Made by a program: the position numbers and the translations under genes | Notes under the pieces: model-generated | What the model was told of the DNA's origin: nothing | What the model saw: the letters and a program-made list of their open reading frames with translations, nothing else | Databases searched by the model: none | Assembly: GCA_964016885.1 (NCBI GenBank) | Contig: OZ024740.1 | Coordinates: 119,350,001 to 119,414,000, forward strand | Source: Eledone cirrhosa | Taxonomy: Eukaryota | Direction: 5' to 3' | Length of the DNA stretch: 64,000 nucleotides | Shown: positions 5,575 through 30,343 of the stretch, in pieces | How positions within the stretch are numbered: the stretch's first letter is position 1 | How the letters are laid out: the number at the start of each line of letters is the position of its first letter

Positions 5575-6660
5575 ATGTATAGGGGAGCAGTCAGCAAAGT
5601 TAGGATTAGCAATGAGTATAGCGAGGAATTTAGCGTACAGGTTGGGGTCCACCAGGGCTCTGTTCTTAGCCCTCTCCTGTTCATCATAGTCCTGCAGGCA
5701 ATAACGGAGGAGCCACAGAAAACAAGTACCACCAATCTCTGGGAGGACCCTGTAGAAACAGTAGACAGCTTCTGCTACCTAGGTGACCGAATTAGCAACG
5801 GAGGTGGGTGTTCAGAAAGTACAATAACTAGGGTAAGAACGGGATGGAAGAAGTTTAGGGAACTACTACCACTGCTAGCTGCAAAAGGCTTCTCCCTCAG
5901 AATGAAAGGCAGACTGTATGATGCGTGTATCCGAACAGCGATGTTGCATGGTAGTGAGACCTGGGCGTTGAAGGTGGAAGACTTACGTAGATTAAAGAGA
6001 AACGAAGCCTGCATGCTCCGATGGATGTGTAACAGTAATATACGTGAACGACAAATCATAAATGAATTGAGAGAGAGACTGAGCATAAGAGGAATCAAAT
6101 GCTGTGTGCAGGAGAGGCGGTTGCGCTGGTATGGACATGTGATGCGTATGAAGGATGACAGCTGGATAAAAAGGTGCAGAGCACTAGAAGTTGATGGAAA
6201 CCGCGGAGTGGGGAGACCCAAGATGACCTGGGATGAGGTGATAAAAGCCGACCTTACCCAATTACACCTCTCAAAGACAATGACACACGACCGTGACTTC
6301 TGGCGTCACGCAGTAATACAGAGTACCCGACCTCCCATGGGTACAAGCTGAAACATATAGACAATATGCCCCCACACCCCCCACCGCAAGATGGTCGTGG
6401 AGGTGCCACGGCAAAAAAGCACCCATCCCATACTGTAAAGTGGACGTGTAGGTGCCACGAAAAAGCACCCAGCACTCACTGTAAATGAGGTTGGTGTTAG
6501 GAAGGGCATCCAGCTGTAGAAATCAAGCCAGATCAGTTCCTGTATGAGCAAGGCATGGTCAGCCGACCAGACACTGCCCACAACAGGACAACCCGTCTAA
6601 CCCATGCTAGCGTGGAAGAACGGACGTAAAACGGTGATGATGATGATGATGATGATGATA
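5575..6660 (+). mobile_element. RTE-clade LINE 3' fragment with an internal deletion of the YADD region; ends in (GAT)n
   Basis: GVHQGSVLSPLLF, FCYLGD, MLHGSETW, RRLRWYGHVMR, GRPKMTW; 3' UTR gaagggcatccagctgtagaa...cccatgctagcgtggaa then (gat)n. Confidence 0.92.
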
Positions 6661-14800: not shown

Positions 14801-14848
<48 letters not shown>

Positions 14849-14851
<3 letters not shown>

Positions 14852-15740
14852 TTCCTCCCGTTTGGCTAACAGTGGGTCTCTTCTTGCTCACATCCCACTC
14901 ACACTGGACGTGTCTGTACCTTTCGCTCATGAAATCCACCTAGCTTATGCTGACCAGGACTACCATGTTGCTTGTTTAATTCCTTTCTTTGGTTTGCTTT
15001 TATCCTTCTATGTTGTTAACTTGTCCCCCTCGCTTTACGCGATATACTGGTCCCAATAACTTTTTTTGGTTATTGCTCGCACCAACCTGAGGTATCTGAT
15101 TTTTAATGCGATGAAATACCAATGATGGTTGGAAAATCACTGACGAAGGACTATTTTTATCATATGTAACCTATGTGCAACCACGCAGTATTCTTCTTTC
15201 TTCTCATGTTTTTTTATATATATTCACCTTGGCTGCGTTTGTCTGTTTCTCTCTTACTGCTTCCACGTTCTCTCTGTTTCTCCCACCTTCTTTCGCTCCC
15301 TCTGTCAATTACACTTTCTCTCGACTGACCGCTTCCTCGCACTTCCACTCGCTCACTCTCTGTTTCTCCCCTTCTCACTTCCTCTCGTTTGGCTAACAGT
15401 GGGTCTCTTCTTGCTTACATCCCACTCACACTGGACGTATCTGTACCTTTCGCTCATGAAATCCACCCAGCTTATGCTGACCAGGACTACCATATTGCTT
15501 GTTTATTTCCTTTCTTTGGTTTGCTTTTATCCTTCTATGTTGTTCACTTGTCTTCCTCGCTTTACGCGATTTACTGGTCCCAATAACTTTTTTTAGTTAT
15601 TGCTCGCACGAACCTGAGGTATATGATTTTTAATCCGATGAAATACCAATGATGGTTAGAAAATCACTGACGAAGGACTATTTTTATCATATGTAACCTA
15701 TATGCAACCACGCAGTATTCTTCTTTCTTCTCATGTTTTA
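14849..15740 (+). repeat. Head-to-tail partial tandem (14849-15222 and 15223-15740) embedded in (TA)n; PLE pLTR-like
   Basis: ~370 bp near-identical direct repeat; each unit ends in ttctcatgtttt followed by TA. Confidence 0.8.
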
Positions 15741-15931: not shown

Positions 15932-16500
15932 ATATTGTTATGCTTTGGGAGGGTCATGTTGCCAATAAGAACCACACGCACCAGTTGGTTACACTCCAAT
16001 TTATTATAAATTAAATTTATAAATTTAACAATTTATAAATTTCCGGTTGGTTGGTTGGTTCCATAACTGGACGGTTGTTCATATAGTGTCAAAGTTCTTT
16101 CGTCAAACATTTTGTGACCTCATCAGTGACTGGGATTCTTTTCTTTGTTTTTGTGCATCTCCTTTGTTCTGTCCTACGCCATCTTGTTTTTATATAAAAA
16201 CAAGAGTGCGTAGGACAGAACAAAGGAGATGCACAAAAACAAAGAAAAGAATCCCAGTCACTGATGAGGTCACAAAATGTTTGACGAAAGAACTTTGACA
16301 ATAAACAAACAACCGTCCAGTTATGGAATCAACCAACCGGAAATTTATAAATTCTTAAATTTATGAATTTAATTTATAATAAATTGGAGTGAAAGCAACT
16401 GGTGCGTGTGTTTCTTATTGGCAACATGACCCTCCCAAAGCATAACAATATCGGTTTCAACACACGTTTTCAGATAAAGAATCTTGCTAAACAAATTCAG

Positions 16501-16503
<3 letters not shown>
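15932..16503 (+). mobile_element. PLE fold-back: 520 bp palindrome (15932-16451) plus 52 nt tail, in (TA)n, with a hammerhead in each arm
   Basis: Centre ttttt-atat-aaaaa; the same pLTR follows a GIY-YIG C-terminus at 29776-30343. Confidence 0.9.
16257..16299 (+). ncRNA. Minimal type I hammerhead ribozyme with intact core (mirror copy at 16088-16130, minus strand)
   Basis: gtca CTGATGA g gtca..tgac GAAA gaac TT tgac. Confidence 0.8.
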
Positions 16504-16541
<38 letters not shown>

Positions 16542-16546
<5 letters not shown>

Positions 16547-17404
16547 TTGGGGAGGGTTGTAATAATATTGCCAGAATTAATAACATAAACCACTCACTGT
16601 TTGGTTGGGTTTTTGCTTCTGTATCTTTTATATCAGTTAATTTATTCAGTCCTCAATGTTTACCATTAACTGACCAAAGGTAAAAAATACAGATATAATA
16701 TAGACACAAACACATGTATATATAGTCTAACAAAGTTCTTTCGTTGCACATCTGCAACATTGTCAGTGGTGCTATTATGTTCCTTATGTTGTATTGTATA
16801 TCTACGCCATCTTTATTTAATCTGTTTATTTATTTATTTATTTATTTTTGTCTTCTCTGTGCATGCGTTTGCGTGTGTGTATAGTGTTTGGTGTGTGTTC
16901 GCGTTTGGGTGACTGTTTTGGTTATTGTATTCTATCTTAGTTTACTAGTGTGTGTGTTTATATGTGTTTGTTGTTATTGTGCTTGTGTATATATTTATGC
17001 ATTTATTTATATATCTCTTAGGTCAGTATTGTTAGTTTGGGTTTTGTTGTTATTCCATTTATTTTTTCTGTTTAGCTTTAGCCTTCTAAGTTCTATTTCA
17101 CTTGCCTCTCTGATTTGCCTATCTGGTGGGTCATTTCTATGTTTAGATATTATTTTAATTTCTATGTTGTCTATGTTATCCTTATGTTGTTGTCTGGCAT
17201 GTTCGTATAGTACTAAACCGTTTTTTCGACGAAAAAACGGTTCAGTACTAATAAATTAACTGATATAAAAGATACAGAAGCGAAAAACCAACCAAACAGT
17301 GAGTGTGTTCTGTTATTAATTCTGGCAATATTATTACAACATTATGACCCTCCCCAAGTATAACAATATTTGTTTCGACACACGATTTCATATCTAAAAT
17401 CTCG

Positions 17405-17485
<81 letters not shown>

Positions 17486-17526
17486 GAGGTTTTAGATATG
17501 AAATCGTGTGTCGAAACAAATATTGT
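16542..17526. mobile_element. Asymmetric PLE fold-back of a related family: long minus arm with a decayed hammerhead (~16731-16770), junction hairpin (17208-17250), short plus arm, tail (17363-17408) and an inverted copy of the tail (17481-17526)
   Basis: 16542-16645 is mirrored by 17249-17362; the tail is mirrored with 1 mismatch in 46 nt. Confidence 0.8.
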
Positions 17527-17566
<40 letters not shown>

Positions 17567-17567
17567 C

Positions 17568-17848
17568 GATTTAGGAAGCTCAGACACCGACTATAGCTGC
17601 AACTACAGTCAGTTGTTATAAAATACCTTAAAGAATAGGGTAAAGTGTCTTATACATCGATGAAATATTCCCAGTGGTCACTGGCAACATTTTCTCTGTC
17701 TCCCATGATCGTTACCCTATTTTAAAGCTACTTTATAGCAACTGACTGTAATTGCAATTGTGTTCTGTGCTTGAGCTTCCTATATCTAATAAGCTTATTT
17801 CATTACTGCTTGCAAAAGTTCGAGGTTCGCAATCAAAGATTATTTAAA
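17568..17848 (+). repeat. Older, diverged fold-back (arms ~17568-17643 and ~17712-17786) plus tail, between TA tracts
   Basis: taggaagctca...tacagtcagttgttataaa...aatagggtaa versus ttaccctatt...tttatagcaactgactgta...tgagcttccta. Confidence 0.7.
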
Positions 17849-17856
17849 TATATATA

Positions 17857-19480
17857 GCTTTTGTTGATTTTGAGAAAGCCTTTGACAGAGTCCCATGCCC
17901 CATTATGTGGTGGACCCTCAGAAAACTTGTGTTGATGAATGGCTTGTGAGAGCTATACAAGCCATGAATAAAGAACCAGTCAGCAAGGTTATTTTAACAA
18001 CGAATATAGTGAAGAGTTTAGCGTAAAAGTTGGTGTTCATCAATGCTGTGTCCTTATCCCCCTCCTAGTTATTATTGCCCTTCAGGCTATAACAGAGGAG
18101 TTCAAGATCGGCTGCCCATGGGAAGTTCTATACGCAGATGATCTAACGCTCATAGCTGAATCAATGGCTGAACTAGAGAAGGTATTCCAAACATGGAAGC
18201 ATGGCCTAGAATCAAAAGGCCTTAAAATTAACTTGTCTAAGACTAAAGTTCTAGTATGTAGGAAGGAAAATAGGGCACTGGTCCCCTCTGGGAAATGGCC
18301 ATGCACAGTGTGTAGGAAAGGAGTAGGCAGAAACTCCGTTTTTTATCCCAAATGAAAAGTATGGGTGCATAAAAGATGTAGTGGGATCACAGGTAAGCTA
18401 ACTAAGAATATATATTTTATATGTGGCCGGTGCTCAGGTGCAATAAGTAGTAGCAAGTGCCCACAGGATACTAGCTCATTCCATTGTCCAGATGGTTCTA
18501 TAGAAATAGTGGACACCTTCCGTTATCTGGGTGACAAAATCAGCAGTGGTGGAGGGTGCTCTGAAAGTACAGTAGCTAGAGTCAGAAGAGGATGGAAAAA
18601 GTTCAGAGATCTTATACCACTATTGGCCGCTTAAGGTTTCTCTCTAAAAATGAAAGGCAGACTGTATGATGCCTGCATACGAACAGCAATGTTATATGGT
18701 AGTGAGACATGGGCATTGTGTGCAGATGATCTATGCAGACAGGAGAAAAACGAAGCTTGCATGCTCCGTTGGATGTGTAAAAGTAATATACGTGAAGGGC
18801 AAAGCATAAATGAACTAAGTGAGAAATTAGGAATAAGAGGGATCAGATGCTGTTTACTCGAGAGAAAACTACGTTGGTATGGTCACGTGATGCGCATAAC
18901 AGACGACAGCTGTATAAAAAAGTGCAGGGCGATCAAAATAGATGGTAGCTACGGAGTAGGCAGACCCAGAAAAACCTGGGACGACTTGATAAATTCTGAC
19001 CTTACATACTTACACCTCTCCAAGAAAATGTCACTGGACCGAGATCTTTGGCGCTACACAGTAATACAGAAGACCCGCCTTGCCTAAGTACAAAGCGAAA
19101 CCTACAGTCAATAGGCACATCTTAACCAAAATACACCACCGTCCCACTACCCCTACCCCCACCCCATCTATACCACCCATTTCGATGTAAAGTTATGTTG
19201 GTACCACAACATCCAGTCGTAAATAAATGAGGTCGTGTAGGTGTCACGACAAAAAAACACACAGTCCACGCTGTAATGTGGTCGTGTAGGTAACACGGTA
19301 AAAACCTCCCAGTCCACACTGTAAACGTGGTTGGTGTTAGGAAGGGCATCCAGCCGTAGAAAACCTGCCAGACAGTCCTACACGAGCAAGACAACCAATC
19401 TTGCCTTAAATGGGACAATTCCCGTCTAAACCCATGCTAGCGTAGAAGATAGACGTTAAACGATGATGATGATGATGATG
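17857..19480 (+). mobile_element. RTE-clade LINE 3' half (pseudogene) with a PHD-like Cys/His insertion in the RT; (GAT)n tail
   Basis: FVDFEKAFDRV, LYADDL, KINLSKTK, WPCTVC..VHKRCSG..FICGRC, FRYLGD, LYGSETW, LRWYGHVMR; several stops and frameshifts. Confidence 0.92.
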
Positions 19481-19852: not shown

Positions 19853-20040
19853 CATTATACTTTGGGAGGGTCATGCTGCCAATAAAAACACATGCACTTT
19901 TTGGTTTTCACTTCAATTTATTATAATTTTCCAGCTGGTTGGTTAAATAACCAGATTGTTGTTTATATATTTTGGCCTCCTCAGTGACTGATTTTTTACT
20001 TTGTGTCTCTATATTGTTCTGTCCTACACCATCTTTGGTG
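19853..20040 (-). mobile_element. Degenerate pLTR copy of the 15932/30 kb PLE family, hammerhead partly deleted
   Basis: ctttgggagggtcatgctgccaataa...cctcctcagtgactg...ttgttctgtcctacaccatctt. Confidence 0.75.
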
Positions 20041-29669: not shown

Positions 29670-30343
29670 GATGTTGCTGTTCCACTCATATTTTCTATTT
29701 AATTTTGGTTGCAATTCTTTTATGTTTATTGCCTCTGTAATTTGTCTAAACATTGCGTCTTTTCTGTGTGTAGAATCTACACACAGAAAAGACGCAATGT
29801 TTAGACAAATCACAGAGGCAATAAACATAAAAGAATTACAACCAAAATTAAATAAAAAATATGAGTGGAACAGCAACATCACAACTTACAATTAAGGACA
29901 AAATGAAAAGACACACACACATAGAACAAACAACCAACCGGTAACATGTAAATAAACAAATAAATAAACGAATATAAAGACACACAGACACCCGGATGTG
30001 GCGCATGCGCAGACTGAGCACACAACACACACACATAAACAAAATGGCGTAGGACAGAACAAAGGAGAGGCACAAAAACAAAGAAAATAATCCCCAGTCA
30101 CTGAAGAGGTCACATAATGTGTGACGAAAGATCTTCGACAATATATAAACAACTATCTGGTTGTGGAACCAACCAACCAGAAATTTATAAATTCCTAAAT
30201 TTATAAATTTATTATAATAAATTGAAGTGAAATCAACAGGTGCGTGTGTTTCTTATTGGCAACATGACCCTCCCAAAGCATAACAATATCGGTTTCAACA
30301 CACGTTTTCAGATAAAGAATCTTGCTAAACAAATTCAGAAACG
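29670..30343 (+). mobile_element. Second PLE family: 211 bp fold-back (29670-29880) of a GIY-YIG C-terminus, then 3' UTR, hammerhead (30097-30139) and tail into (TA)n
   Basis: HRKDAMFRQITEAINIKELQPKLNKKYEW; gtca CTGAAGA ggtcac..gtgac GAAA gatctt; strong homology to 16200-16503. Confidence 0.85.

Follow-up and report, generated by a model that had tools for sequence, protein, structure and literature searches.

How does a retroelement fragment come to look as if its inverted copy had been cut exactly at the boundary of its tail, with the two pieces put back in swapped order? This question is raised by a locus in the genome of Eledone cirrhosa, which is 3.0 Gb in size and rich in (TA)n repeats. 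The locus lies in a stretch of 64,000 nucleotides of contig OZ024740.1, called the window below, to which all coordinates refer. The initial annotation took the arrangement as evidence that the boundary is a cut or processing site. The analysis described here points instead, with a probability of roughly 0.7, to head-to-head Penelope-like fragments in (TA)n whose inverted tail arose later, as a mirror copy made by fold-back of a nicked or broken TA repeat. The locus is laid out as follows.

16503-16545: (TA)n tract that separates element B from its neighbour, element A.
16542-17228, minus strand: inverted arm of element B, a tail-less Penelope-like 3' fragment of about 690 nt.
16731-16770, minus strand: decayed hammerhead-like motif of the element B pseudo-LTR; the CUGANGA core is altered at one base, and stem II folds.
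17010-17228, minus strand: ORF remnant, the last ~70 codons (end of the GIY-YIG region); the left limit is approximate.
17208-17250: 43-nt hairpin at the head-to-head junction, with its turn point at 17229, followed by a jump of ~550 nt within the element.
17241-17366, plus strand: direct arm, the 3' end of the pseudo-LTR, with the ATG of the element ORF at 17344.
17359-17362: internal TATA, the TA match where the inverted arm and the mirror copy each meet (TA)n.
17363-17408, plus strand: loop or boundary bases and one-sided tail (ORF codons 7-22).
17407-17482: (TA)n tract, the axis of the mirror.
17481-17526, minus strand: mirror copy of the tail, with 1 mismatch against 17363-17408.
17527-17566: AAA and a further (TA)n tract, beyond the mirror.

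Several parts of the original description hold. The inverted arm does start, at 16542, at the position matching 17362, with an ambiguity over 17359-17362 because TATA is common to the arm and the tract. The tail does recur in inverted orientation, and its only mismatch is a T in the direct copy and a C in the inverted one; the match is well beyond chance (E 2e-15, self-BLAST within the window). The final two bases of these 46 nt are indistinguishable from the TA tract, and the tail of the family is really longer: both window copies break off at one and the same point and lack ~18 nt of the longest family form. The hairpin of 43 nt is confirmed as well, with one mismatched pair and a 1-nt centre. 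The seamless join in swapped order stands in part. The two pieces are complementary at the TATA, but AAA intervenes between the inverted piece and the TA tract beyond it, so that the seamless join has to be inferred.

The surroundings of the locus are rich in other repeats. A sister Penelope-like family, A, occupies 15932-16502 as a near-perfect palindrome with its centre at 16193/16194 and a one-sided tail; more copies in the window lie at 30037-30340 and 19855-20035. Element C (17567-17850) is an old palindromic repeat with a one-sided extension, similar in outline to Penelope stumps. Element C was considered as the insertion that caused the mirror and rejected: among 315 genome candidates its closest relatives are mostly 66-88% identical, so that it looks older than element B. 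Further on, at about 17850-19100, lies a decayed reverse transcriptase (RT) region of a non-LTR retrotransposon, which resembles an ORF piece in one fetched locus (L032; L numbers denote such loci) and which may be RTE-like. Upstream, 14848-15147 and 15375-15674 form a direct duplication of ~300 nt with 95% identity, 527 nt apart.

The locus is a head-to-head 3' fragment pair of a Penelope-like retrotransposon inserted in (TA)n. A family search with arm and tail as the query gave 233 candidates, of which 40 were scored, with 92-100% identity and 41 matches listed. Longer copies contain ORF pieces, 406-489 aa in length, in which YVDD, a CX4CxxC linker and motifs resembling GIY-YIG occur; YVDD and NVVY...YIGET were read by eye in L039, L057, L059 and L093. 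On these motifs, an RT and, at the C terminus, a GIY-YIG endonuclease occur in one ORF. In the ORF pieces Pfam matches RVT_1 alone, below the cut-off (E 0.0016), and no GIY-YIG domain; no intact full-length ORF was seen among the family copies fetched. The 18 longer homologues are 29-45% identical and almost all unnamed.

The arms can be placed on this parent at both ends. The inverted arm of element B matches the 3' part of the ORF-bearing copies L093-L098 at 79-86%, and the ORF remnant was positioned by BLAST onto L093, where the ORF ends at 6483. The tail continues into the ORF start in L010, L063 and L107, with the ATG at the equivalent of window position 17344. In this element, then, the pseudo-LTR extends over the start of the ORF and can carry a tail on one side. 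Such a tail is present, on exactly one side, in all 36 head-to-head pairs among the fetched loci (L030 counted twice), and the arms are unequal in 30 of them. A MITE or DNA transposon with terminal inverted repeats would have inverted repeats at both extreme ends, a constant length and no RT parent; this reading was rejected, since the tail is one-sided, most arm pairs are unequal and the parent has an RT. Helentron and Crypton readings were dropped once the RT parent was found.

A canonical hammerhead core is present in the sister element A, at 16261-16289 on the plus strand and 16098-16126 on the minus strand, and is decayed in B. An Rfam scan gave no hammerhead family, its sole matches being microRNA-type hairpins below gathering scores, and folding did not recover the full hammerhead fold. 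Reading the ORF by eye shows a linker of the form C-TNRK-CxxC, then a pair of Cys within the core and two His; the flanks are TA. Judged from these motifs, the linker and TA targets fit the Neptune or Nematis type, which has a CX2-5CxxC linker before the GIY-YIG core, a CCHH motif and microsatellite targets.

In published descriptions of endonuclease-bearing Penelope-like elements, the inverted copy is truncated at its 5' side and just one end has a tail, formed by the first codons (PMC8557442, PMC3846280). The copies studied here agree with the passages of these two papers on head-to-head 3' fragments, a one-end tail made of the first ORF codons, a palindrome at the inverted junction, a putative hammerhead-like motif, an RT with GIY-YIG behind it and a CX2-5CxxC linker, and insertion in (TA)n. 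They differ in tail length (~57-60 nt in the longest form, compared with 30-40 nt) and in the mirror tail across the TA tract, which is not among the layouts in those passages; PMC3846280 mentions tail-to-tail repeats as a prediction only. Long asparagine-rich stretches were observed in the N-terminal half of the ORF in L093, L094, L096 and L097, and PMC3846280 likewise describes such stretches for rotifer Penelope elements. Penelope-like families have also been annotated in one cephalopod genome (PMC13282606).

At the place of the junction hairpin, other family copies continue straight through 17229, and the only one with a similar junction, L034, is without a hairpin. A hairpin forming the fixed centre of a foldback-element family was rejected, as other copies run past this point into the ORF. 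Junction hairpins with arms of at least 12 bp were counted in 5 of the 30 pairs with unequal arms and in 2 of the 6 with equal ones (raw counts). The hairpin that had been read as the mark of an internal jump is a junction scar, and other copies have scars of this kind too. The centre base of the hairpin agrees with the family on the bottom-strand reading only, a T being found at the equivalent place in nearly all of 30 copies. This one base hints that the inversion turned at the hairpin, the tail-side strand probably reversing its direction at 17229, and that the direct arm lost ~550 nt afterwards. Alternatively, the hairpin may be a snap-back scar joining two separately primed copies.

Tail-less arms in this family usually start as (TA)n-TTGTTATAC, at the equivalent of 17366-17369. 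Exact patterns give 5858 usual arm starts and 471 of the window type (~7%), so the seam at 17362/3 in the window is a minor end, and the usual starts extend 4-7 nt beyond it. Tailed ends also fall into classes, of 27, 24, 12, 7, 6 and 3 among 79 tail copies. Right after each of the four end classes examined, the template continues with TA or TAT, as read from the read-through copy L063; this suggests pairing of the target TA end with the RNA. The pattern fits such pairing; later slippage might give the same result.

A comparable boundary is known from Poseidon of Anolis carolinensis, where two reverse-transcription start sites delimit the tail and the target is cut and extended on both of its strands (PMC11167929). 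Given these start sites, the tail boundary here is mechanistically real as a start site, though 4-7 nt off the seam. The proposal that the boundary is a cut or processing site therefore survives in modified form: such a boundary is mechanistically defined in Penelope-like elements (PMC11167929), and the tail-less arm start is sharply fixed in this family, but at 17366-17369 and not at 17362/3. The two systems share a tail with discrete end points and an AT-rich target. Poseidon belongs to another clade, and unlike the ends described here, which precede a TA match, the start sites in PMC11167929 are not homologous to the cut DNA. A stem-loop predicted at 17355-17372 (7-bp stem, AACA loop) adjoins the usual arm start; with a z of -0.6 against shuffles it is not significant, and as a likeness to Poseidon it may be regarded as a lead only.

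If the inverted tail had been cut out at the arm boundary, tail-only fragments in (TA)n would be expected to end there, whereas scattered ends would make the coincidence in the window unremarkable. A search pattern with a TA run at most 24 nt from the tail gave 229 matches; the 100 rows listed represent 37 distinct loci, which all lie on C1-C3. By its design the pattern picks out TA joins, and some rows end early at a substitution. At two of the listed loci the match is the 5' end of a long copy, and several others represent internal deletions or very small palindromes. Among the matches listed, the exact native match begins at 13 positions from 17343 to 17369, with 11 loci at 17359-17363 and 14 at 17366-17369. 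The ends therefore cluster at TA-like spots of the template and not at a single arm boundary, and the scatter that would make the coincidence unremarkable is largely present. An origin as a "collapsed palindrome" (TTGT + ACAA) was rejected, with no unmutated example among these 37 loci.

Four of the 37 TA-joined fragments (the window, L105, L113 and L123; among the matches listed) are mirrors of the adjacent tail. In each, the fragment faces a family tail across one TA tract, and both its ends and its variants are equal to those of that tail. The other 33 loci are not mirrors, which lends some support to the idea that the inverted tail is an independent, very short insertion of the same family into the TA tract in the opposite direction. 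Tail-to-tail pairs of this sort exist: L155 and L166 have differing ends and variants, and L007 pairs with the sister family. In the window, however, the end common to the two tails recurs in just 1 more of the 79 tail copies, and their common variant block occurs in 7 of the 79; the chance of identity in both block and end is ~0.02. An independent insertion is thus a very improbable source of the window copy.

Tail-to-tail pairs were found at 16 loci genome-wide, and 14 of them end at the same point on both sides. The chance of a common end is 0.247 per pair, a value that the spacer limit of the search (20-50 nt) may bias somewhat, and the binomial probability of 14 out of 16 is 2e-7. Rare variants or rearrangements are common to both sides in L113, L123, L159, L160, L161 and L167. 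The inverted tail thus reads as a mirror copy of the neighbouring tail and not, as had been proposed, as a piece cut from the arm.

Where the mirrors end bears on another explanation, a doubly tailed circular or hairpin intermediate, joined via a TA run, cut at the internal TATA and integrated in (TA)n. A single crossover at the TATA would then account for the entire arrangement and its swapped order, and the endonuclease of a Penelope-like element cuts AT-rich DNA of its own pseudo-LTR in vitro (PMC11167929). If true, the locus would carry the first trace in a genome of the endonuclease resolving such an intermediate at the tail boundary. Opening of a circle should, as a rule, make the mirror end and the arm start complementary. 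The mirror ends are instead scattered over 17342-17400: at 15 loci they lie at 17342, 17359, 17363, 17366 (2), 17370, 17378, 17382, 17385, 17394, 17396, 17397 and 17400 (3), a table that leaves out L155 and L166 (asymmetric), L161 (rearranged) and one more of the 16 loci. Only 2 of the 15 stop at the TATA of the window. Among six mirror loci with a visible inverted arm (the window, L123, L158, L163, L164 and L168; L161 is not counted), the pieces fail to join in four: L158, L163, L164 and L168. L123 is seamless too, at the usual boundary; with so many arms starting there, chance alone would lead one to expect this. A complementary piece within 1.5 kb is absent from all 29 other window-type arms, including the 7 with a tail in view. 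It is highly unlikely that the locus arose through such an intermediate.

Mirrors are not confined to the family tail. A mirror scan of 290 tracts gave 19 mirror-like hits, compared with 3-5 under shuffled flank pairing; this background rate is rough, because about half of the 19 came from loci chosen for mirrors or tail fragments. Flanks other than the family tail are copied in 8 of the 19. An example is a 473-nt exact mirror of a tail-less arm in L046 (2187-2360), across a 173-nt TA tract, which ends in an (ATTT)n run. Another is a 26-nt mirror in L143 of a flank that appears to be single-copy, found nowhere else among the fetched loci. The hits in L124 and L154 look like independent insertions. 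In L153, L108 and L015, the outer flanks of an element or tail fragment are inverted copies of each other. The mirror end in L169 has three tandem copies of the boundary motif with TA runs between them.

The exactness of many mirrors, including that across 473 nt, together with the tendency of TA tracts to form hairpins, could also be read as an assembly or sequencing artefact of reads folding back in the TA tract. The mirror in the window has one differing base, those in L160, L165, L168 and L169 differ also, and several mirrors end at junctions with a truncated repeat. These sequence features speak against an artefact, which is extremely unlikely.

The truncated repeat is ~180 nt long and ends in (TA)n. 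A mirror is joined to a 5'-truncated copy of it, with varying breakpoints, in 6 of the 14 symmetric pairs (the loci concerned are L156, L158, L159, L161, L165 and L168). Mirrors at the 5' junction of short-repeat insertions mean that mirrors also arise at the far end of new insertions. The same machinery may mobilise this repeat. Mirrors also look younger than their hosts: over six loci, 4 of 208 positions in mirrors are diverged (1.9%) and 32 of 624 in the host arms (5.1%), a borderline difference (Fisher p = 0.05). For the window alone (1 of 45 in the mirror, 7 of 110 in the arms) the difference is not significant.

These observations can be set against an origin of the mirror in the same integration as the arms. 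In one version, both TA strands were nicked and each primed at the same RNA start, the second copy being aborted after 46 nt; in another, a read-through RNA primed itself in a UA run. One RNA would account for the common variants and ends. Cutting and extension of both strands by the Poseidon protein has been observed in vitro (PMC11167929), and self-priming on a sense template would yield tail-to-tail repeats (PMC3846280). However, mirrors copy non-tail flanks too, occur at the 5' insertion junction of another repeat and look younger than their hosts. The two versions taken together are unlikely.

In the favoured reading, fold-back of the TA repeat after insertion, the locus would have formed in steps. 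The element endonuclease would cut a TA repeat, and reverse transcription would start where the target TA end matches a TA-like spot in the RNA; the layout is seen directly, and the mechanism would be that of PMC11167929. Of the two arms formed in this way, one would lack the tail and its counterpart across from it would carry it. The tail-less arm in the window would either begin at the minor TATA at 17359-17362 or have lost 4 nt later, by slippage to the same TATA. After the turn and deletion suggested at the hairpin, a free 3' end in the self-complementary tract at 17407-17482 would snap back and copy the tail as far as the first TATA. The released strand would then re-pair with TA repeats across the break, as in snap-back synthesis-dependent microhomology-mediated end joining (MMEJ). 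The recurrence of mirrors is an observation, while the enzymes and the cause of the break are conjectural; candidate sources of the break are the element endonuclease, a cruciform-cutting nuclease or a replication template switch.

The seamless look would then come about because both pieces end independently at one TATA, where they meet because it is also a minor TA-matched arm start. Coincident ends need two events, one seen in ~7% of arm starts and the other in 1 of 14 other mirrors, and should be uncommon per locus. Both events prefer a few TA-like spots, the TATA at 17359-17362 among them. A further difficulty is that the window mirror stops one base short of the TATA and has AAA rather than a clean TATA next to it, which requires assuming either substitutions in the tract or an untemplated insert. 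Of the features of snap-back, a primer and an inverted copy are present; the far junction is TA-like in TA-ended mirrors, but AAA intervenes in the window.

Snap-back with TA/AT primers has been described (PMC5728401), and TA-repeat breaks are repaired by MMEJ (PMC13645644). The locus has in common with the cases in these papers an inverted copy of a neighbouring sequence, a TA/AT inverted-repeat primer and, in the proposed reading, closure by microhomology. The breaks in those cases were induced in flies or tumour cells, whereas the copies here, from ~14 to more than 470 nt, are fixed in the assembly. In LINE-1 insertions, too, the second target end self-anneals or inverts before joining (PMC11702581), but the target there is not a self-complementary microsatellite. 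No description of mirrors for Penelope-like elements was found in the literature searched, mostly outside subscription journals. The locus is a known kind of retroelement insertion, probably together with a known kind of repair scar.

The locus itself is of little wider importance. The family, by comparison, provides thousands of countable ends, and the classes examined all precede a TA match in the template. Such ends bear on how Penelope-like elements prime reverse transcription and on why microsatellites are favoured as targets. The recurrence of short mirrors in (TA)n, some of them at 5' insertion junctions, suggests that self-complementary targets steadily add small inverted duplications.
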